Shown one piece after another: positions 2,321-61,102 of a stretch of 64,000 nt of DNA. The notes under the pieces are model-generated. The model had not been told where the DNA came from. It saw nothing but the letters and a program-made list of their open reading frames with translations, and did not search any database. Each line of letters opens with the position of its first letter. Positions within the stretch are counted from its first letter, which is position 1. Source of the DNA: an uncultured Verrucomicrobiae bacterium (GTDB lineage Bacteria; Verrucomicrobiota; Verrucomicrobiia; Limisphaerales; UBA11358); contig CAVXQV010000011.1 in assembly GCA_963764035.1 (NCBI GenBank), forward strand, positions 105,042 through 169,041, given 5' to 3'. The translations under genes were made by a program, and so were the position numbers.

Positions 2321-2602
2321 CCGTGCCACCGGACCTTTCAGCCGTGCATTCCGGCCGGCCGCGCGCACATTCGAAGCCTCCGGGCATACATCCGGGAGAT
2401 CCGCAGGCATCCCCGGACCATCCGGGCGCACCTACGGAAGTTCCGGATGGACCAACGGATCATTCGGCCATACCTACGGAACGTCCGGGCGCACCTACGG
2501 AACGCCCGGCCACACCAACGGACCGTCCGTCCATGCCTACGGAAGCTCCGGACACACCGACGGAGCGTTCGGAGGTGCCTACGGACCATCCGGAGGTGCG
2601 GG
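2321..2602. repeat. Degenerate tandem array R1, unit exactly 21 bp, about 13 units
   Basis: Consensus CCGGRCRCACCTACGGAASNT. The ACGG of successive units sits at 2434, 2455, 2476, 2497, 2518, 2539, 2560 and 2581. The array is open in at least 5 of 6 frames (ORFs 2225..2662, 2247..2669, 2323..2718, 2338..2712-, 2460..2648-), so no frame stands out as coding. Confidence 0.85.
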
Positions 2603-2706
2603 TTTTTGGCCAAAACAGGCCGAAAACAGCGAAAAACACGCCTTCCAACGCCCGGACCGTAGGAATTGATGAATTGGGCGCAAGTTGCCCGGCTGGGGCG
2701 GGTTCC

Positions 2707-2820
2707 GGCCACGGTTAAAGGCCAAACATCAAACTTGACCTTGCCCGCCGGTGGACGAATGCTGATGGCATGAAATGGAAAGCAACCCGTTTGCCTTCGC
2801 CAACGCCTGAAACCAAGACA
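2707..2820 (+). promoter_or_regulatory. Conserved 114-nt leader element (copy 1 of 2) with a sigma70-like promoter TTGACC-N17-AATGCT reading into the cassette
   Basis: Its first ~85 nt are about 90% identical to the reverse complement of 52028..52141. The -35 TTGACC is at 2735..2740, followed by a 17-nt spacer and the -10-like AATGCT at 2758..2763. Promoter activity is inferred from sequence only. Confidence 0.35.
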
Positions 2821-3330
2821 CAGGATAGGCTGAATATAGCGCCGTCCATGATCTGTTAGGCATCATCACACGTTTATGCGCTATCTCGTCACTATTTTAT
2901 TTGTGCTGGTAGTTCTCGTCGCCTGTTCACGCAAGTCGGATATTTCCCAGCGCGACCCGCAACGTGAGCAGCGTGATATTCTTCTTCATGCGCAATCGGA
3001 GGCTTTGCAGGCCAAGATTGTCCTGACCCAGTTGCACGACGGACACCTTACCAATGCGCTGGAGCTTTTGGAGATGCAGATAGACACATCGGTTATTATG
3101 ATTGACCATTCTTTGCCGAGCCTTTCCGGCGCACAGCGTGACGAGGCTTTGGGCACGCTACGGCTGCTTAAAGCGTATCGAGAGGCACACCCGCGACAGC
3201 AGGAGGCAGTTATTCCGGATGCCGACAAGGAAGACGCAGCGGCACTGATCCAAGCAAGCCAAAAGGCGTCCCAAATTTTGAGCGATTTGAAATGAACCTG
3301 ATGCCTAATATGAGAATAGGCTGAACGGCT
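2821..3330 (+). mobile_element. Integron-cassette-like unit C1: one ORF between attC-like left and right elements
   Basis: Left element 2821..2864 is CAGGATAGGCTGAATATAGCGCCGTCCATGATCTGTTAGGCATC. Right element 3300..3330 is GATGCCTAATATGAGAATAGGCTGAACGGCT. The 9-nt ends TTAGGCATC/GATGCCTAA are perfect inverted repeats. ATAGGCTGAA is a direct repeat at 2825..2834 and 3316..3325. Both elements recur at 50411..52027 and 57265..57692. Confidence 0.55.
2876..3295 (+). CDS. Hypothetical lipoprotein (cassette ORF, 139 aa)
   Basis: The ATG lies 14 nt after GTTAGGC. The N-terminus MRYLVTILFVLVVLVACSRK has a signal peptide and lipobox Cys. GC is visibly lower than in the neighbours. I do not recognise a family. 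Confidence 0.7.
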   Translation: MRYLVTILFVLVVLVACSRKSDISQRDPQREQRDILLHAQSEALQAKIVLTQLHDGHLTNALELLEMQIDTSVIMIDHSLPSLSGAQRDEALGTLRLLKAYREAHPRQQEAVIPDADKEDAAALIQASQKASQILSDLK

Positions 3331-19808: not shown

Positions 19809-21281
19809 CTAACCCTGCAACAATTTAATCTGCTCGCTGTCCTTCTCCACCGCCTCGCCGAGCGTCTGGGCCTGGCGCTTGCGGCTCTCGATGATGTGTT
19901 TGTCCAGCAGCGGGTCGTAGGGCACGGGATATTTGCCGTCGTAACACGCCATGCAAAAGGATTCCTTCGCCAACCCCGTTGCCTTCACCATGCCGGTCTG
20001 GGAGAGGTAATGCAGCGAGTCGGCGTTCAGGTATTTGCGGATTTCGTCCACGGTATTGTTCGCCGCCATCAGCTTGCTGCGGTCGGGAAAATCAATGCCA
20101 TACACGCACGGGTTCGTGTGCGGCGGGCAACTGACCGCGACGTGGACCTCCTTTGCGCCCGCTTCCTTGAGCGTCTTGACGCGCGTCTTGCAGGTCGTCC
20201 CGCGCACGATGGAATCGTCCACGATCACCACGCGCTTGTCCTTCACGAGCGAGGCGATGAGGTTCAGCTTCACGCGCACGTCGAAGTCGCGGATGAGCTG
20301 CGTCGGCTGGAGGAAGCTGCGCCCGACGTAGTGGTTGCGGATGAACGCCATCTCGAAGGGGATGCCCGACTGCTCTGAATAACCCATCGCCGCGCAGACG
20401 CCGCTGTCCGGCACCGGGATCACGAGGTCGGCCTTGACCGGATGTTCGCGCGCGAGCTGGCGGCCCATTTCCTTGCGGACTTCGTAAACGCTGCGGCCGC
20501 CAATGTTGCTGTCCGGCCGCGCGAAATAGACGTATTCAAAAATGCAGAACGCGCGCTTCTCGTGTTCGGGAAACGCCTGCAGGCTGGTCAGCCCTTTTTC
20601 GTTGATGATGACGATTTCGCCCGGCGCCACGTCGCGGACAAATTTGGCCTGGATCTGGTCGAGCGCCACTGATTCGCTGGCCAGCACCCACGCGCCGTTC
20701 ACGCGGCCCAGACACAACGGACGGAACCCGAACGGGTCGCGCGCGCCGATCAATTCCTTCTCCGTCAGGATGACCAGCGAATACGCGCCTTCGATGCGCC
20801 GGACCGTCTGGACCAGCGTGTTCTCCATCCCGCCAATCGTCGGCTGCGCCAGCATCATGATGATGATTTCGCTGTCCACGCTCGTCTGGAAAACGAGGCC
20901 GCGGCGTTCCAACTCGTCGCGCAATTGCGCCGCGTTCGTCAAATTCCCGTTGTGGGCCACGGCGATCTGGCCGCGCGTGCAATCCACCGTCAGCGGCTGG
21001 GCATTGCGGATGTGCGACGACCCGGTGGTGGAATACCGCGTATGGGCGACGGCCACGTTGCCGACGAGGTCGTGCAGGATTTTGGGATTGAACACCTGCG
21101 GCACCAGGCCCATGCCGTGGTGCTTGTAAAATTTCCCCTCGTGGCAGGTGACGATGCCCGCGCTCTCCTGGCCGCGGTGCTGGAGGGCGTAGAGACCATA
21201 GTAGGCAAGTTCGGCGGCATTCGGATGGCCGAAAATGCCGAACACGCCGCAGTAATGTTTGGGGTAATTTTGCTGTTGCAT
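19809..21281 (-). CDS. purF: Amidophosphoribosyltransferase
   Basis: A propeptide precedes the Ntn Cys (MQQQNYPKHYCGVFGIFG). PRTase motif VVIVDDSIVRGTT. Cys ligands lie in SCPPHTNPCVYGID. ATG at 21281. Confidence 0.92.
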   Translation of the reverse strand: MQQQNYPKHYCGVFGIFGHPNAAELAYYGLYALQHRGQESAGIVTCHEGKFYKHHGMGLVPQVFNPKILHDLVGNVAVAHTRYSTTGSSHIRNAQPLTVDCTRGQIAVAHNGNLTNAAQLRDELERRGLVFQTSVDSEIIIMMLAQPTIGGMENTLVQTVRRIEGAYSLVILTEKELIGARDPFGFRPLCLGRVNGAWVLASESVALDQIQAKFVRDVAPGEIVIINEKGLTSLQAFPEHEKRAFCIFEYVYFARPDSNIGGRSVYEVRKEMGRQLAREHPVKADLVIPVPDSGVCAAMGYSEQSGIPFEMAFIRNHYVGRSFLQPTQLIRDFDVRVKLNLIASLVKDKRVVIVDDSIVRGTTCKTRVKTLKEAGAKEVHVAVSCPPHTNPCVYGIDFPDRSKLMAANNTVDEIRKYLNADSLHYLSQTGMVKATGLAKESFCMACYDGKYPVPYDPLLDKHIIESRKRQAQTLGEAVEKDSEQIKLLQG

Positions 21282-21594
21282 CGCCCGCGCCGCTGAAGGG
21301 TCGCAGACGATAACGCGAAGTGCAAGGCGGAACGAAAATCGGCGCGGGCGCATATCAAGATTTGAGGGGGTATCAGTGATGGAAAACTCTCGAATTGACA
21401 ACCATTTCATTAACACCCTGTTTTAGCCGAATCCAAGTAGTTGAAATTGCCCTTCGGAGGCATGAGGGTTGGCTGGAAGGTTCTCCGGCCCGTGCCTGCC
21501 CGACCGTATTTAGTCCAGCCGCACTGCTCCAAAGGTCAAATCCCAAAAATTAGAGGGGTTTCAGCCAAAACCGGCATTCATTCCTTCGGCATTG

Positions 21595-21850
21595 GAGCAC
21601 ACTCTTTCGCCGTTCGAGCGCGCTCTTTTCGCGTGGGAGCATGCTCCCGCGCCGTTCGCGTGCGCTCCCACCGCGTTGGAGCGTGCTCTATCGCCGCGGG
21701 AGCACACGCCTGCGGCGTGGGCGTGCGCTCTTTTCCCGTGGGCGCATGCTCTTTTCCAAAAAGAGCACACTCTTTTCCCGTTGGAGCGCGCTCTTTTTCC
21801 GTTCGAGCATGCTCTTTTCCCGTTGGAGCATGCTCTTTTTCCGAAAGAGG
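21595..21850. repeat. Degenerate tandem array R2, unit exactly 21 bp, 12-13 units
   Basis: Consensus GGAGCRYGCTCTTTTCCCGTT, containing the 10-bp palindromes GAGCATGCTC and GAGCGCGCTC. GAGC or its variants sit at 21595 + 21n for n=0..12, with no indel. All three + frames and two - frames are open. Confidence 0.88.
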
Positions 21851-22065
21851 AGGCGATTTTGGGCGCTTTTTGCCGGCTTTCACGGCTTGAATACGCTAGA
21901 ACAAGTTTATTTTCAACGAGTTACGCTGTAGTGGTCAAAAATAGCCACTTTTTGGGGGTGCCGGGCGGGCGTTCCGATGCCACCCGCCCGCCCCGGCGAA
22001 AGGGACGCCTTTGGAAGGGCGCATATCAAAAAAAAGCCATTTGCCGCCGGGCGTTCAAGCGCGCT

Positions 22066-23160
22066 TTATCCCTGGCCATCCGTGGTGGAAGCAAGGCCGG
22101 CTTTGCCGGCGGCGGCGGGAGTGGCCGGGTTCCATTCCTCAAGGAGCCGGTAACCGACGGCCAGCAGGGTCGGGCCGAGGAAAACACCGATGAAGCCGAA
22201 GGCGAGCGCGCCGCCGATGACGCCGAAGAAAATCAGGACGAACGGCATGTTGCTGCCCTGGCTGATGAGCCACGGTTTGACGACGTTGTCCACGTTCGCG
22301 ACGAGGAGGCCCCAGACGATCATGAAAATGCCCCAGCCGGTCGCGCCCTGGTGGAAGAGCCAGATGGCGGCGGGAATCCAGACCAAGCCCGTCCCGAGCA
22401 CGGGCACGACGGAAACAAAAAAGGTGAGCAGGGCCAGCAGCGCAGCGCCGGGAACGCCGGCGACGAGAAAACCGATGCCTGCAAGCAACGCCTGCACGAG
22501 CGCGGTGCCGAGAATGCCATAGACGACGCCGCGAACGGTCCGGGCCGCGACGGTGATCAGGCGCACGCCCCGGTCGCCGCCGATGCGAGTGACGCCGGCA
22601 TTGAGCCGCCCAGCAAGAGCGACGCCGTCGCGGAACAGGAAGAAGGCGATGAACACGCTCAAGGCGAGTTGAATCAATCCGTGACCGAGCAACAATCCAC
22701 CCTTCAGCAGCCAGCCACTGACAGTGGGGATCCATTCCTTGGCCTTTTCCATGAGCTTGGTGGTGTCGCCGGCGAGGTTTTGCCACGAGGCAACGGCTTT
22801 GGCGCCGACGACGGGAACCTTGCCTAGCCAATCTGGCGGCGCGGGCGGTCCGGCCTCAATCCATTTCTTCGTGGCGGCGGTCAAGTCGTTCACGTTGTCG
22901 GCGAGCGTGGTGCCGACGATGAACAGTGGCAGCAGGAGGATGAGAATCATGCCGAAGGTCATCGTCAAGGCGGCCAGCGTGCGGCGTTGACGGAGGAAGC
23001 GCAGCAGCCGGCTGTAGAGTGGCCAGCTCGTGGAGCAGAGCACCACCGCCCAGAGCAGGGCGGACACGAAGGGGCGCAGCACCAGCAGGCAGCCGGCGAG
23101 CAGCAGCAGGACAACGGCCCAGCCGATGTAGCGTTCGTTTCTTCCGCTCAATGTGGCCAT
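22066..23160 (-). CDS. AI-2E family transporter (PerM/UPF0118)
   Basis: 364 aa and polytopic. C-terminal signature VVPVLGTGLVWIPAAIWL ... DNVVKPWLISQGSNMPFVLIFFGVIGG. Confidence 0.8.
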   Translation of the reverse strand: MATLSGRNERYIGWAVVLLLLAGCLLVLRPFVSALLWAVVLCSTSWPLYSRLLRFLRQRRTLAALTMTFGMILILLLPLFIVGTTLADNVNDLTAATKKWIEAGPPAPPDWLGKVPVVGAKAVASWQNLAGDTTKLMEKAKEWIPTVSGWLLKGGLLLGHGLIQLALSVFIAFFLFRDGVALAGRLNAGVTRIGGDRGVRLITVAARTVRGVVYGILGTALVQALLAGIGFLVAGVPGAALLALLTFFVSVVPVLGTGLVWIPAAIWLFHQGATGWGIFMIVWGLLVANVDNVVKPWLISQGSNMPFVLIFFGVIGGALAFGFIGVFLGPTLLAVGYRLLEEWNPATPAAAGKAGLASTTDGQG

Positions 23161-28737: not shown

Positions 28738-28892
28738 AGCGCCCCGGAGAAGGGGCGAAGGTGCGGGGTGTTGCGTTGCCGGATCTTTCACAGGGCGAGC
28801 CACGCGCCCCGTTGCCCCTGCGGAATGCGGATTCCGTCAAATACATAAACATAATCCCAAAGAAATGGGGATTATGCACTTGACGGAAGTTT

Positions 28893-29098
28893 CCCTCGCC
28901 CCGCCCAAGCGGGGAGAGGGTCAGGGTGAGAATTCTCCGAACCCCATTTCGCGCTTTGAACCCCTGCAACCTCAAGATGCGCAAGTCGCTGATAATCAAG
29001 TTGGCGATCTTGAGGTTCATGGGGAGGGGATTTCATTTTTCAATTGAAATCAGCGCCACCTCACCCCAGCCCTCTCCCCCGCTTCGCGGCGGAGAGGG
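28893..29098. repeat. Composite REP-like element with two CCCTC(T/G)CC...GGAGAGGG hairpins, copy 1 of 2
   Basis: Hairpins at 28893..28920 and 29070..29098, joined by ...TTTTCAATTGAAATCAGCGCCACCTCACCCC. The same arrangement occurs inverted at 42525..42635. CATAATCCCAAAGAAATG occurs twice nearby, around 28850 and 29140. Confidence 0.75.
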
Positions 29099-29211
29099 AG
29101 GATTTCCGCGTATCATCTTAATTTTACGTCAACGACATAATCCCAAAGAAATGCCATTTTTGCCATTTTCCAGCTAAATCACCTGTTTTCAGCCAGTTCC
29201 AGCGGTTTTTG

Positions 29212-29484
29212 GATGTCGCAAAATCATTTTGGGACATCCCCCCGGAGTTTTGGGACATCGCAAAGCCAGCTCGTGACATCCCATCGTCGTTTCGCGACGT
29301 CGCACCCCTGGCTTGGGACATCCCAAAACCGCGGTGAGACATCGCGAAATCCTGGCGCGACATCCCGCCGGCGTCTCGGGACATCGCAAAGTTGGCGGGT
29401 CAGATCCCGGCGTCGTTCCGCGACATCGCACCCTTGGCCTGGGATATCGCAGGGCCGCTTTGGGACATCGCCGCCTGGTTTCCT
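29212..29484. repeat. Degenerate tandem array R3, 21-bp phase with 42-bp and 126-bp higher order, 13 units
   Basis: GACATC or variants sit at 29212 + 21n for n=0..12. Units mostly alternate GACATCCC and GACATCGC. Units 2-7 resemble units 8-13 pairwise. The array ends 95 nt before the kinase start. Confidence 0.88.
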
Positions 29485-39154: not shown

Positions 39155-39625
39155 AGGATGAGGGCGGGCGTAAAACACAAAATGATTTGGTTGCAACGAC
39201 CGTCCTCACCCCGGCCCTCTCCTCCGAGGAGAGGGTGGAACTGCCGCCGCCGCCCTGACAATCCACGCGCCGGATTTGCCGGATGGCCAACTGCATCACC
39301 GGAAACGCCCGCAGGCTGTTCCTTCTCCCTGGGGGAGAAGGTCAGGATGAGGGCGGGCGTAAATCACAAAACAATTCAGTTTTAACGACCGTCCTCACCC
39401 CGGCCCTCTCCTCCGAGGAGAGGGTGGAACTGCCGCCGCCGCCCTGACAAGCCATGCGCCGGATTTGCCGGATGGCCAACCGCATCACCGGAAACGCCCA
39501 CAGGCTGTTCCTTCTCCCCGAGGGAGAAGGTCAGGATGAGGGCGGGCGTAAACCACAAACCAATTCAGTTTTAACGACCGTCCTCACCCCGGCCCTCTCC
39601 TCCGAGGAGAGGGAGCACCCGCCCG
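39155..39625. repeat. Tandem repeat, 189-bp unit, about 2.5 copies, each unit carrying two REP-like hairpins
   Basis: AGGATGAGGGCGGGCG starts at 39155, 39344 and 39533. Each unit contains the hairpins CCTTCTCC-N5-GGAGAAGG and CCCTCTCC-N6-GAGAGGG. Confidence 0.9.
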
Positions 39626-39659
39626 CCGCCGCCATGAACGGAGGGCCGGGCCATCGGCA

Positions 39660-40533: not shown

Positions 40534-40900
40534 TCAAGTGGCTGTCAACTAACCGGTTGCCGGGTATGGCAGTGGGCAAGTTGAATTCAACTGACGGTCT
40601 GCCATGTATGGGAGGGGGCAAGTTGAATTCAACTGACGGTCTGCCATGTATGGGAGGGGGCAAGCTGGATTCAACTGATGGGTTGCCATGTATGGGAGGG
40701 GGCAAGTTGGATTCAACTAACGGTCTGCCATGTATGGAGGGGGCAGTGGATCAACTGATGGGTTGCCATGTATGCAGGGGCGAGTTGGATTCAACTGACG
40801 GTCTGCCATACATGGCAGGGGGCCAGTTGAATTCAGCCAACGCCCTTGGCGGTGTCAAGGGAGGGGGGTTGAGACCGGCTGGCGTGCCGGGCGACGGCGG
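40534..40900. repeat. Tandem array R4, 42-bp unit (2 x 21), about 9 units, decaying at both ends
   Basis: Unit GGCAAGTTGAATTCAACTGACGGTCTGCCATGTATGGGAGGG, with the palindrome GTTGAATTCAAC and the near-palindrome CCATGTATGG. GAATTC/GGATTC sits at 40583, 40625, 40667 and 40709. Later units carry small indels. Confidence 0.88.
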
Positions 40901-42465: not shown

Positions 42466-42524
42466 GGCTTCTGGAATTGGGACTACTTCGTTGACACAAA
42501 TTTACCAATGACATTCGCAAACTT

Positions 42525-42635
42525 CTCCCTCTCCGCCGCGAAGCGGGGGAGAGGGCCGGGGTGAGGTGGCGCTGATTTCAATGGAAAAAGAATTGCCCCT
42601 CACCCTGACCCTCTCCCCGTCCGACGGGGAGAGGG
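42525..42635. repeat. Composite REP-like two-hairpin element, copy 2 (inverted relative to 28893..29098)
   Basis: CTCCCTCTCCGCCGCGAAGCGGGGGAGAGGG ... GGCGCTGATTTCAATGGAAAAAGAATTGCCCCTCACCC ... CCCTCTCCCCGTCCGACGGGGAGAGGG. Confidence 0.75.
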
Positions 42636-44377: not shown

Positions 44378-45865
44378 TTGAAACTGGACAATCGCCGGCG
44401 GTTTCCGCATTTTTGTCGGGTGGAAAAGCCACCTATCCTCCAATCGCTTCCTGTCACTCCCAGGAAAAAGAAACGCGGGGTGTTGATTGTCTGTCTGGTC
44501 GTCGGCGTGGCCCTGGCCTTGAGCGCCGTCGTCGTGGTCGTCAAGCGCGCGCAAGCCGCCCATCACGGTGCAGACCACCAAGGTTTCGCGCCACAGCCTC
44601 ACCAACCTCGTCGTCGCCAACGGCCAGATCCAGCCCGTCGTGCAGGTCACCATCAGCCCGGAGGTGAGCGGCGAAATCATCGACCTGCCGGTCAAGGAAG
44701 GCCAGCTCGTCAACAAGGGCGATTTGCTGGTGAAAATCAAACCGGATGTCTATGTCGCGGCGGTCAACCAGGCCAAGGCCAGTTACGCCTCGTCGGTGGC
44801 CGGCCAGGCCCAGTCCGCGGCCAACGCGGAAAAGGCCGAGGCGGATTACCAGCGCAATCTGGAATTGTTCAACCGCAAACTGCTTTCGGAATCGGACTTC
44901 ATCGGGTTCAAGGCCGCGCGCGACGTGGCCCGCGCCCAGTTGGAAAGCGCCACCAACCAGGTGAACATGGCCAAGGCCGGCGTGGACAGCGCGGAGGAGG
45001 AACTGGCCAAAACCACCATCTTTTCGCCGCTCACCGGCACCATCACCCGCTTGAATTCCGAAGTCGGCGAACGCGTCCTGGGCACGGTCCAGAATGCCGG
45101 AACCGAAATCATGACCATCTCGGATTTGAACCAGATCGAGGCGCGGGTGAACGTGGGCGAAATGGACGTGGTCGGCATCACGCCCGGCCAGCAGGCGCGG
45201 CTGGAAGTGGACGCCTTCAAGGACCGCAAATTCACCGGCGTGGTGACGGACGTCGCCAATTCCGCCGTCGGTTCGGGCAGCCAGAGCAGCCACCGCCAGC
45301 AGCAGCCAGTCGCAGCAGGCCACGCAATTTGAAGTGCGCATCCGCGTCAACGAAAAGGAGCCGGCCTTCCGCCCCGGCATGTCGGTGACGGCGGAAATCG
45401 AAACCGAGTATCGCACCAACGTCCTGACCGTTCCGCTGGCCAGCGTCACCACCCGCCCGATGAAACCTGATCCGCCGAAAACCGGCGGAACAAATGCCGA
45501 CCGCCGCCACCGCTTCAAGCACCAACGCAGTCGCAGGCACAAACAGTGTCGCGGGCACGAACACCGACAAGGCTGCGGGAAAACTGGCATCGGCCGCCAA
45601 ATCGAACGACGTCGCCAAACCGACCGACGTGGTCTTCGTGGTGGACGGCGACCACGTGAAGGCCGTGCCGGTGAAGATCGGCATTTGCGACGACAATTAC
45701 TGGGAAATCACCGACGGCCTGACCAACGACGAGGAGATTGTCTCCGGCGGTTACCGCGCCATCGGACGCGACCTTCAGGACGGCTCGAAAATCCACGTCG
45801 GCCCGGCCGGAGCGGACACCGGAGACGGAAAAGAAATGAAAACTTTGGTGAAACGTGATGTGTGA
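44378..45865 (+). CDS. macA: MacA/HlyD-family periplasmic adaptor of an ABC-type efflux pump; frame broken about 3 times
   Basis: A TM anchor (VLIVCLVVGVALALSAVVVVV) is followed by VVANGQIQPVVQVTISPEVSGEIIDLPVKEGQLVNKGDLL, a coiled-coil hairpin, TIFSPLTGTITRLN, and a beta-barrel/MP domain. The pieces lie in ORFs 44378..45388, 44568..45332, 45334..45858 and 45494..45865. The start is uncertain. Confidence 0.8.
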
Positions 45866-45928
45866 AACGTGAATAACAGCAATCTCGGAACAATTTTCAC
45901 GCTTCACGCTTCACGCTTCACTTCAACC

Positions 45929-51915: not shown

Positions 51916-52027
51916 ATCACCTCATAGACACCGACCACACAGTGTTTTGTATAACTATTTTTATTGTGCTTGGTCCCGACATCGCAGCCTAACAGAACGT
52001 GGGCGGTGCCGTATTCAGCCCATCCTG

Positions 52028-52141
52028 TTTCATGGCTTTGAGTGTTAGCGGAAGCAAACGGGTTGCATTCCATTTCATGGCGTCAGCATTCGTCCACTGG
52101 CGGGCAAGGTCAAGTTCGATGTTTGGCCTTCAGCCGTGGCC
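52028..52141 (-). promoter_or_regulatory. Conserved leader element (copy 2) with TTGACC-N17-AATGCT reading into cassette unit C2
   Basis: Its reverse complement aligns with 2707..2820. The -35 is at 52113..52108 and the -10-like hexamer at 52090..52085, both on the minus strand. Confidence 0.35.
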
Positions 52142-52342
52142 GTCACGGTCATTTGATGCCGAAGCGTTTTTTGACTTCGGCATGGGTGAGGCGCGGTTTG
52201 CCTTCGTCGCGCACGCGCGCTTCGGTCAGGTCCGGATAACCGAATCCACGCCTGTCCTGCGCAAGCCGGCTCGCGCCGCGTGGCTGGCAACTGCATGGAA
52301 CCGGTTTAATCCGTCCCTCCGTGATTGAACCGCGGCTTTTAG

Positions 52343-52663
52343 CTAAACCAACTCCAGCCGCAGCACGCACAGGCCGCAATCCACCGTGGCTTCGCCGGGC
52401 GTCGGCAGCCGTTGCGCCGGGATCTGGTATAGATGCGCGTGCGCCCGCACCACCAAACCGGCGGCGTGCAGCTTGGCCACGTGCTTGGACGTCATGTCCG
52501 CGCTGCACCCCACGGCCCGCGCAATTTCGAGGACCATGTGCGGCTGGCCGTTGGACAGTTCTTTGAGGATCCGCCAGCGGACGGGATGGCTCAACGCCGC
52601 CGCGAGTTTGTTCAGTTCCGGCAACGTCGTTGCCGCCGTCGTTTTTGCGGTTTCTGTGGTCAT
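52343..52663 (-). CDS. ArsR/SmtB-family transcriptional regulator
   Basis: LAAALSHPVRWRILKELSNGQPHMVLEIARAVGCSADMTSKHVAKLHAAGLV. The ATG at 52663 is preferred over the ORF-track start at 52732. Confidence 0.8.
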   Translation of the reverse strand: MTTETAKTTAATTLPELNKLAAALSHPVRWRILKELSNGQPHMVLEIARAVGCSADMTSKHVAKLHAAGLVVRAHAHLYQIPAQRLPTPGEATVDCGLCVLRLELV

Positions 52664-52848
52664 AAATCGCGGTTTGTCAGGGAAAAACTCGATTTCGCCT
52701 GAATCAGATGTATTTACAGAATAAAGCGACATATTGTCAAAGGAAAAATATCTAGTCTCGGACTAAATGGATGTCGAGTAGTGATATATGTATGTATTCT
52801 ATGAATATATAAACGTCCTCTATTTGGGAGACGGTTTACGCTCTAAAT

Positions 52849-52975
52849 AGATTTATGTCCGCTCTTTAGCAAAACATTTAGTCTATTAATATCTCGATTT
52901 CTGCTCTGCTGATAAATATCTACGCTCGGCATAAATCTAATTCCGCTCGCCACCGGCTTTTCGTCCGTCGCCCCG
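52849..52975. repeat. AT-rich phased array R5, 21-bp unit, about 6 units
   Basis: CGCTC/TGCTC sits at 52849, 52870, 52912, 52933 and 52954; the 52891 unit is degenerate. Units also carry TAAAT/ATAAAT. The array is embedded in a ~270-bp stretch (52733..53005) of much lower GC than the rest of the window. Confidence 0.7.
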
Positions 52976-57150: not shown

Positions 57151-57264
57151 GCGAGCTTTGGCAGCAAAGCCTGAAAGAATTTACGATTGGCGATTGACGA
57201 TTTACGAGCGCGGGAAATTCGCCCGCCTCGTAAATCCGTCGTGGCAGCGGGAACGGCGAGACGA

Positions 57265-59685: not shown

Positions 59686-61102
59686 ATGAACGGACAAAAT
59701 CCAAGAGAAATTGCGGCGAGAGTTTTGCGGCAGCGGCGCGCCGGCGGCGAATTTACGGAGACTTTGCTGGAACGCGCGCTGGCGGGCGCGCGGCTTTCGC
59801 CCGCCGACCGCGGGCTTTGCCAGGAACTGGTTTATGGCGTCGTCCGCTGGCAGGCCGCGCTCGACTGGCTCATCGCGCGGAAAACCGAGCGGCCGCGAGC
59901 AAAACGCCGGCCTGCAAAACCTGCTGCGCCTCGGCCTCTACCAGATTTTCTGGCTCGACCGGATTCCCGACCACGCCGCCGTCCATGAAACCGTCGAACT
60001 CGCCAAACACAGCGGCTTCGGCCCGCAGGCGGGATTTGTGAACGCCATCTTGCGCGGCTATTTGCGCGAGCACGAAGCAGACCCGGAAGCTGCTGGCCGA
60101 ATTGAAGAAATCCCTGCCTGCCATCGGGTTGCTCGCATCCCGAATGGCTGGTGGAAAAATGGCGCGCCCGTTTTGGCGACGATCAAAACAGCGCAATTGC
60201 TGGAATGGAACAACACGCCGCCGAAAACGTTTGCGCGGGTCAATGCGCTGAAGGCAGGGTCGGCGCGCTGCGCCGACCGGACGCCGCACGCGGCGTCCCC
60301 ACCAAAATGGAAAATGCCGGCGATTTGCTCGCCCGCTGGCGCGAGGAAAATGTGGAATATGATTTCGTCCGGCGCGACTGGCTGGAGGAAAATCTGGTCT
60401 TCGAGCTGAAATCGCATCCGTCGCTGAATTCGCTCGCAAGTTTCCGCGACGGCTGGTTTTACGTTCAGGACCCCGGCACGCTGCTGGCGCGTGACGGAAC
60501 TCGAGTCCGCAGCCCGGCGAAACGATTCTGGATTTGTGCGCCGCGCCCGGCGGCAAGACCACGTTCATCGCGCAACTCATGCGCAATGAGGGCAAAATCG
60601 TGGCCTGCGATGTTTCCGAAGACCGGTTGAAATTGCTTCGCGAAAATTGCGGACGCCTCGGCGTCACCTGCGTCGAAACGATTTTATCTTCGGCCTTCAG
60701 CCTTCAGCCTTCAAGTCTTTGACCGGATTTTGGTGGACGCGCCCTGTTCCAACACCGGCGTGCTGCGCCGGCGCGTGGATTTGCGCTGGCGGATTACACC
60801 GGCGGAAATTTCACGGCTGCAGCAGACGCAACTGGAGTTGCTCAAGCTCGCCGCGACGAAACTGAAGCCCGGCGGCGTTCTGGTTTACAGCACGTGCAGC
60901 CTGGAACCGGAGGAAAATGCCGAAGTGGTGAAGGAATTTCTCGCCGCGCACCCGCAATTTCAAACTGGAAGCCGAGCGTGAGTTGCTGCCATTTGCGGAC
61001 AACGTGGACGGCGCGTTGATGTTGCGCCGGCTCGAAATGCGCCTGCAACGCAGGACCGGCGCGACGGTTAATGCTCGCCCGTACATCCCCATGATCTGGT
61101 AG
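59686..61102 (+). CDS. rsmB: 16S rRNA (cytosine-C5)-methyltransferase RsmB/Sun-like; frame broken at least 6 times; 3' end uncertain
   Basis: A NusB-like N-terminus (PREIAARVLRQ...LCQELVYGVVRWQAALDW) is followed by FVNAILRGYL, GWFYVQDPGT, CAAPGGKTTFIAQL, VDAPCSNTGVLRRRVDLRWR and LVYSTCSLEPEENAEVV. The fragments are spread over several ORFs between 58870 and 60981. Confidence 0.82.

Follow-up and report, generated by a model that had tools for sequence, protein, structure and literature searches.

The array R2, which lies upstream of purF in the 64,000-nucleotide stretch of DNA analysed here (the window), is real, non-coding and strongly selected, and it belongs to a module that represents a previously undescribed family in soil and peat subdivision-3 Verrucomicrobiota. 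A literature search found no description of such arrays. Our preferred account, held tentatively and at somewhat less than even chances, is that R2 serves as a DNA lattice for the cooperative binding of a dimeric protein, coupled to its own promoter and transcribed from it.

Layout of the array and register of its promoter block

R2 consists of 12 units placed at 21595 + 21n without a single indel, followed by a degenerate 13th unit at 21847 (GAGGAGGCGA). On the plus strand the unit reads GAGCRYRCTC and then a TTTTCCCGTTG-like sequence, and the minus-strand consensus, in the register anchored on the promoter, is GgAAAAGAGCgtGCTCcaACG. The preliminary description of this DNA, made from its letters, had proposed indel-free repeats of 21 bp, and this is borne out by the layout, by TRF (rows of period 21/42/63 over 21594-21849, the main rows with 0% indels) and by a repeat search that recovered 10 in-register copies, each exactly 21 bp apart. 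At lag 21 the fraction of matching positions reaches 0.73 over 126 bp, compared with a largest value of 0.508 at lags 5-89 in a control of 40 block-shuffled windows. A scan of the same lags within the 64-kb window returned long arrays at 21/42/63/84 only, at five loci. The units of R2 are contiguous and without unique spacers between the repeats, which ruled out a CRISPR array.

Each unit had also been credited with a 10-bp palindrome. This stands for the eight of 12 units that fit GAGCRYRCTC, whereas a perfect GAGCATGCTC or GAGCGCGCTC is present in five and four units are more degenerate. The palindrome variants are transitions of GAGCGCGCTC. Counted on both strands, GAGCRYRCTC occurs 16 times against 1.84 expected, with a single occurrence outside the array. 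The geometry first claimed, dyad-symmetric sites every 21 bp, is correct, as is the size of the gap upstream of purF (784 bp, 21282-22065).

A promoter-like site of sigma-70 type is directed into the array and towards purF (Table 1), and the promoter scan calls the same site in the nearest homolog, contig L099, and in L083. The block around it is kept in all ten aligned family members as CCCCCAAAAGTGGCTATTTTTGACC, a partly conserved spacer and then TTGnAAAT; its conservation spans about -60 to +1 and falls directly downstream. A sequence model built from the ten-member alignment has a single match in the window, at R2 (68.4 bits, E 2.8e-19), and a 57-bp run of the block is 100% identical to L099. 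A sigma-54 promoter was rejected, the GG-N9-GC on the plus strand being mis-spaced and its GG lost in L085.

The promoter block and the array share one register. The dyad centres of R2 lie at n x 21 bp from the -35 centre, and the phase between the -35 centre and the strongest dyad (mod 21) is 0.0 bp in the R2-type arrays, L104 and L105, and 1 bp in L108 and L081; it is broken in the rearranged L101, which is 3.5 bp off. The first unit stands at n=4, 84 bp from the -35 centre, in all lattice-anchored arrays despite their diverged units. Since a promoter lies outside any RNA, double-stranded DNA offers the easiest explanation of this register.

Table 1. Features around R2 and other arrays of the window, with positions identical to the nearest homolog where the two were compared
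Feature	Positions	Strand	Identical to L099	Remarks
purF (amidophosphoribosyltransferase)	19809..21281	-		downstream neighbour
Direct repeat, copy 1	21346..21358	.		GGGCGCATATCAA (minus strand TTGATATGCGCCC); purF side of insertion
Insertion, 658 bp	21359..22016	.		extra DNA compared with the spacer between perM and purF in the closest relative
Post-array stretch	21527..21594	-	55/68	kept with L099 only (~80%); GCCGGTTTTGGCTGAAACCCCTC..ATTTTTGGG, weak hairpin and U-run
R2 array	21595..21846	.	250/252	12 units x 21 bp; layout, TRF, repeat search
Stretch between predicted start site and array, 56 bp	21847..21902	-	45/56	includes 13th unit, 21847-21867
Whole conserved promoter block	21894..21967	-	59/63	A-tract/TGGCTATTT upstream, -35, spacer CGTAA..CG, TTGnAAAT
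Sigma-70-type promoter-like site, TTGACC-N18-GAAAAT	21909..21938	-		TTGACC 21938-21933, GAAAAT 21914-21909; promoter scan
Direct repeat, copy 2	22017..22029	.		GGGCGCATATCAA; perM side of insertion
perM-like AI-2E family transporter	22066..23160	-		upstream neighbour
R1 array	2321-2594			intergenic; CGGA-N3-TCCG; 21/42-bp period, phased palindromes
R3 array	29212-29463			intergenic; TGGGACATCCCA alternating with GGGACATCGCAAA; 21/42-bp period, phased palindromes
R4 array	40534-40840			intergenic; AGTTGAATTCAACT alternating with TGCCATGTATGGCA, palindromes 21 bp apart; 21/42-bp period, phased palindromes
R5 stretch	52744-52973			AT-rich (39% GC), weak 42-bp periodicity, no significant dyads

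Relatives of the module and its insertion between perM and purF

Members of the family come from peat and soil Verrucomicrobiota and as a rule neighbour a small FN3-domain gene, here named MAK; the family sample is small (~8 independent lineages). When metagenomes were scanned with a 25-nt unit pattern, five contigs from peat were recovered, and in these the module stands upstream of MAK. The nearest homolog, L099, aligns to window positions 21462-21996 with the same 12 units; L082 and L083 align to 21582-22001 with the order of units preserved. Each of the MAK-locus contigs L097/L098, L099/L100, L101, L104, L105 and L108 has a 21-bp array nearby, and the MAK locus of L107 has none. A motif match in L042 proved to be chance.

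MAK itself has only 34 homologs, with weak FN3 matches, and its AlphaFold model (pLDDT 89) consists of a long helix and an FN3 domain, with PDB matches to FN3 only. It was rejected as the binder of the array, as the model shows no DNA-binding fold and the window carries no MAK. The MAK proteins of L104 and L105 are 64% and 54% identical, and the array units of these loci seem unrelated at first sight; the core in L104 is GACTGCAGTC, three symmetric pair changes away from GAGCATGCTC, and retains the dyad. In L081 and L108 the orientation of the spacer is flipped and the cores remain on the lattice. Upstream of MAK, L099 (3808-3823), L083 (962-977) and L105 (2818-2833) have a perfect CRP/FNR-type site, TGTGA-N6-TCACA; in R2-type loci it lies between the two divergent promoters, centred 82 bp from the -35-like hexamer of the one directed into the array.

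Selection is concentrated on the array. Between the window and L099, two of 252 array positions differ, compared with 24 of 124 in the flanks (Fisher p = 9e-11), and in 15 of 15 pairwise comparisons conservation is higher in the array than in the 56-bp stretch beside it. Among six homologs, indels within the array always comprise whole 21-bp units; the 56-bp stretch is constant in length in six aligned sequences, at 46-80% identity to the window. Among orthologous units, variation is lowest in the palindrome arms GAG/GCTC and the ACGG; it falls on the middle of the palindrome, on the A/T tract and on the final two positions.

The copy in the window arrived by insertion. Its host is a subdivision-3 verrucomicrobium (best purF match 90% at the amino-acid level), and the closest perM homolog (87%) is on contig L096, where perM and purF are separated by a gap of 95 bp that has no array. 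In the window an exact 13-bp direct repeat brackets 658 extra base pairs, and the single site of L096 aligns to both copies; 0.005 exact repeats of 13 bp would be expected in the gap (calculated over 791 bp). Positions 21462-21996 of the insertion are homologous to the native module beside MAK in L099, no homolog was recognised for positions 21359-21461, and the window copy breaks off within what is the CRP-like site at the native locus. The MAK gene was not found anywhere in the 64-kb window. At L085 (~1000-1057 and 1690-1745), and also in L084, two diverged 5' fragments of pheT bracket the module (~690 bp), and intact pheT is absent from these contigs; these fragment copies are a further sign of arrival by insertion or duplication.

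Because R2 lies within an insertion that its closest relative lacks, it is not an ancestral or resident control region of purF. In 80 related purF loci, upstream homology reaches no further than 50-70 bp from the start codon and none has the array, and a purF operator was rejected on these loci and the closest perM-purF locus. A PurBox of the B. subtilis type was likewise rejected: CCGAAC-like sequence occurs in some units only, and the native loci are unrelated to purine genes. The module promoter lies 620 bp upstream of purF in the same orientation, and no terminator was predicted between them on the minus strand of the window. From this geometry alone we infer that the inserted module, with its promoter facing purF, may influence that gene.

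A proposed DNA lattice and the competing explanations

The two-turn period, the indels of whole units, the conserved dyad arms and the register with the promoter are most simply explained on duplex DNA, and the phased 21/42-bp arrays with unrelated units elsewhere in the 64 kb point to the helical repeat. R2 is a single copy of a non-coding module that is conserved in subdivision-3 Verrucomicrobiota. The unit of this module, a short palindrome with an A/T tract and a conserved ACGG, recurs every two B-DNA turns, so that the array would offer ~12 equivalent dyad sites along the same side of the helix. These would be bound cooperatively by a sequence-specific dimer whose gene lies elsewhere. The nucleoprotein lattice thus formed, beginning ~50 bp beyond the start site, would be coupled to the promoter: it would block or trap RNA polymerase, or it would be a filament that transcription remodels.

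Several observations weigh against such a lattice. A candidate binding protein was not found, MAK included, and 10-bp palindromes are short for most dimeric regulators. The window and L099 also share unit-variable positions, beyond what the recognition of half-sites needs, and among the relatives L101 is off register and L107 arrayless. Finally, a promoter running into the array, combined with the terminator-like hairpins of L083 and L105, resembles an RNA gene.

As the conserved promoter, which the preliminary description had missed, is directed into the array, an RNA product is a serious rival, and we regard it as possible if somewhat unlikely. The product would be a non-coding transcript of ~350 nt, a short 5' stretch followed by 12 x 21 nt, whose ACGG and GAG..CUC would offer an RNA-binding protein a multivalent platform or sponge, or which would be cut to unit length. 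Besides the promoter block, it is favoured by the absence of a coding signal, by the array being the best conserved part, as for a functional product, and by terminator-like hairpins 3' of the array on the promoter strand in L105 and, by eye in the sequence, in L083. The GCCGGTTTTGGCTGAAACCCCTC..ATTTTTGGG hairpin of the window might also be a terminator on the minus strand; the terminator scan did not call it. A slight excess of G-U over A-C at imperfect sense-strand dyads (38 versus 21) is seen in R2-type arrays and L108, but its sign is reversed in L104 and L105.

The exact 21-nt period, the whole-unit indels and the -35 register are, however, unexplained by a single-stranded RNA, whose loopless 10-nt palindrome could not form a hairpin of its own. 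RNAalifold gave a positive covariation term (+4.18), that is, no net covariation, and the two strands of the array fold equally well (z = -6.2 and -7.2). The spacer flips of L081 and L108 also speak against an RNA, and Rfam returned no match at gathering score and only spurious miRNA-hairpin matches below threshold. An RNA product and a protein-bound lattice are not mutually exclusive.

Two known kinds of repeat RNA invite comparison. The sponge RNAs CsrB and RsmZ present GGA in hairpin loops at irregular spacing, and R2 recalls them as a ~350-nt promoter-driven non-coding unit with some 10-20 imperfect repeats of a short motif; it differs in its exact spacing, in its unsupported structure and in its conserved element. 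GGA is present in only eight of 12 sense-strand units, which makes a CsrB-like reading weak, and the conserved positions are ACGG/GAG/GCTC, not GGA. ToxI repeats of type III toxin-antitoxin systems are ~34-79 nt long, occur in 2-5.5 copies and are followed by a toxin gene. R2-family loci resemble them in having a promoter, tandem direct repeats and, in some loci, a terminator-like hairpin, but the gene downstream of the array is purF in the window, a phosphoglycerate-mutase-like gene in L083 and a carbonic anhydrase gene in L085; a type III system was rejected, no toxin gene being present downstream in these three.

It is improbable that R2 is a functionless passenger, a minisatellite fragment copied from the native MAK locus into the gap between perM and purF by illegitimate insertion and kept only because the event is recent. 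The 658-bp insertion with its 13-bp duplication, missing from the closest relative, agrees with such an origin, as do the truncation inside the CRP-like site, the lack of MAK and the presence of other dispersed repeats in the same intergenic regions. Nevertheless, the flanks of the copy have diverged from L099 by ~20% and the array by less than 1%, so the inserted copy is not recent and its array has been kept intact since the split, which makes a passenger unlikely; the promoter block is intact too. As for transposable elements of the MITE or IS type, the exact repeat around the 658 bp looks like a target-site duplication, the ends of the insertion carry no terminal inverted repeat, and the module is single-copy in the window. 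The pneumococcal BOX and mycobacterial MIRU elements are dispersed in many copies and have no fixed helical period. R2 is like them a non-coding tandem module between genes that has been inserted at a new site. Unlike them it is present once in 64 kb, comes with a conserved promoter of its own and normally occupies one conserved locus.

Iterons, centromere-like sites and operators had been named in the preliminary description as parallels for the array, and membership in any of them fails, as there is no rep, par or repressor gene and no plasmid or phage match. It is accordingly very improbable that R2 belongs to an integrated element as its iteron-type origin or as a centromere of the plasmid style (parC- or sopC-like). 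In favour of such a role stand ~12 phased 21-bp repeats with internal dyads beside A/T-rich DNA. Iterons of the lambda and plasmid type are ~19-22 bp long, lie two helical turns apart in 4-7 copies near A/T-rich bent DNA and, in lambda, each have internal dyad symmetry. R2 shares the direct repeats within 17-22 bp, their two-turn spacing, the dyads and the A/T-rich neighbourhood, but it has 12 copies, no initiator (Rep) gene beside it and no DnaA boxes identified. Its neighbours are perM and purF, and those of the native loci MAK and housekeeping genes, a context that largely refutes an origin or centromere.

The parC sites of plasmid R1 (type II partition) and pSK41 are short repeats locked to the helical repeat, with units of 11 or 20 bp; in plasmid R1 the promoter lies inside the phased iterons and transcription passes through the repeats. 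Phased repeats sharing a lattice with a promoter, and the proposed cooperative binding of a small dimer on one face, recall these sites. The units of R2, by contrast, are 21 bp long and dyad-symmetric, its array lies only downstream of the promoter, and it is chromosomal, beside housekeeping genes and without parM or parR. No operon of ParA/ParM with ParB/ParR/ParG was present in the window neighbourhood or at ~10 related loci, and no rep, parA/parM, parR/parB or integrase gene adjoins R2 or the native loci. BLAST of the insert found no similarity among 72,556 plasmids and 50,697 phages, and viral contigs contained no R2-type array, a two-palindrome pattern giving chance pairs only.

A small heptad-repeat protein, such as the product of the 101-aa minus-strand ORF 21578-21883 (KEHAPTG) or of the GKRACSN frame, is hardly credible, and its earlier rejection is upheld by codon phase, start codons, GC3 and protein searches. 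The observations behind that rejection hold as well: nearly all frames are open, and substitutions show no third-position bias, with minimum counts by codon phase of 48/41/32 that in the GKRACSN frame rank only weakly as position 3 > 1 > 2. In favour of a protein stand this weak ranking, the open frames, the seven codons that make up 21 bp and the coding array of L022 described below. GC by phase is 0.69/0.51/0.63 in the array against ~0.62/0.42/0.82 in real genes of this genome. Start codons are not conserved, an ATG of the GKRACSN frame being found in two of six homologs and the GTG of the window being absent from L099; the KEHAPTG frame has stops in L083 and L085, and the inverted spacers of L081 and L108 are equally adverse. 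A concatenated six-frame translation had no match among 5.8 billion predicted proteins, and eight array ORFs had no exact match in protein and contig collections from which the source genome is masked.

Arrays of this clade do reach gene catalogues. In L097, public gene calls at 2090-2752 and 2678-3232 (220 and 184 aa, without Pfam matches) overlie the array and are probably spurious ORFs that arise because the repeats are stop-free, a warning for annotation wherever such arrays are open in nearly all six frames. A relative, L022, has at 185-487 a 42-bp array that truly codes, for the N-terminal coiled-coil repeat of a PAS-domain protein, so periods that are multiples of 21 are not always non-coding in this clade.

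Other phased arrays and repeats in the window

R2 had been counted as one of five such arrays in the window. The count holds for R1, R2 and R3, whose phased dyads (4.0, 3.9 and 3.3 pairs of 5) far exceed the 99th percentile for random segments, and for R4 with its alternating palindromes, but not for R5, which has no significant dyads. R5 immediately precedes an ArsR-type HTH gene (52343-52732, minus strand), with a promoter-like TTGACA-N17-TGTAAAT at 52740, and is probably an ordinary regulatory region and not an array of the same kind. What the five share is an architecture, and the constraint or generating mechanism supposed to be common to them stays hypothetical; the promoter of the R2 family is found at R2 alone. 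A promoter common to R1, R3 and R4 was rejected, as the family model matches only R2 and nearby regex motifs are not significant.

Phased repeat arrays are a kind of sequence already known, and there is a real chance that R2 is something new. The wider proposal, which we consider rather unlikely, is an undescribed class of cis-element in subdivision-3 Verrucomicrobiota, with 10-15 dyad units locked to two helix turns, at least one conserved family of which is fused in exact register to a promoter of its own; it would act as a chromatin-like or switch device whose unit sequence turns over from lineage to lineage, with period, symmetry and register constant, and which can move and rewire neighbours such as purF. 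If true, it would be a new bacterial device in which a cooperative filament reads or gates transcription, or in which a structure is driven by transcription.

Should the lattice reading hold, the module would be a conserved, selected non-coding device in an abundant and poorly studied phylum of soil and peat, fitting no catalogued RNA family, mobile element, origin, centromere or operator. The two-turn period, the length changes by whole units and the promoter register across lineages make the assembly of a helically phased nucleoprotein a testable hypothesis, and the translocated copy before purF provides a natural experiment on the effect of the module upon a housekeeping gene.

Additional repeats accompany the arrays. 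An inverted dispersed repeat of 156 bp (2706-2861 and 51987-52142, 85% identity) carries ACAGGATAGGCTGAATA...TTAGGCATCATC, a motif of which L099 has three copies close to its native module (2950-2990, 3261). REP-like elements on GGGGAGAGGG/CCCTCTCCCC palindromes, and a tandem repeat with the same motif (2.6 copies of 189 bp, 9 x 21), lie at 29012-29146, 42477-42613 and 39155-39637. At 28849 and 29135 a REP-like element is bracketed by a perfect direct repeat of 19 bp, ACATAATCCCAAAGAAATG. Around R3, an imperfect repeat of ~17 bp, CCATTTCG(CG)CTTTGAAC, stands at 28944 and 29485, a hint that R3 too may lie within inserted DNA.

Tandem repeats of the clade are dominated by periods that are multiples of 7. 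Micro-arrays of heptanucleotides (GTGAAAC, TTCACGC, ATTGACG, CTTCAGC) occur in the window at 45848-45921, 57179-57207 and 60688-60713, and long 7-bp arrays are present in the relatives L045 (384-656) and L048 (9786-10096).
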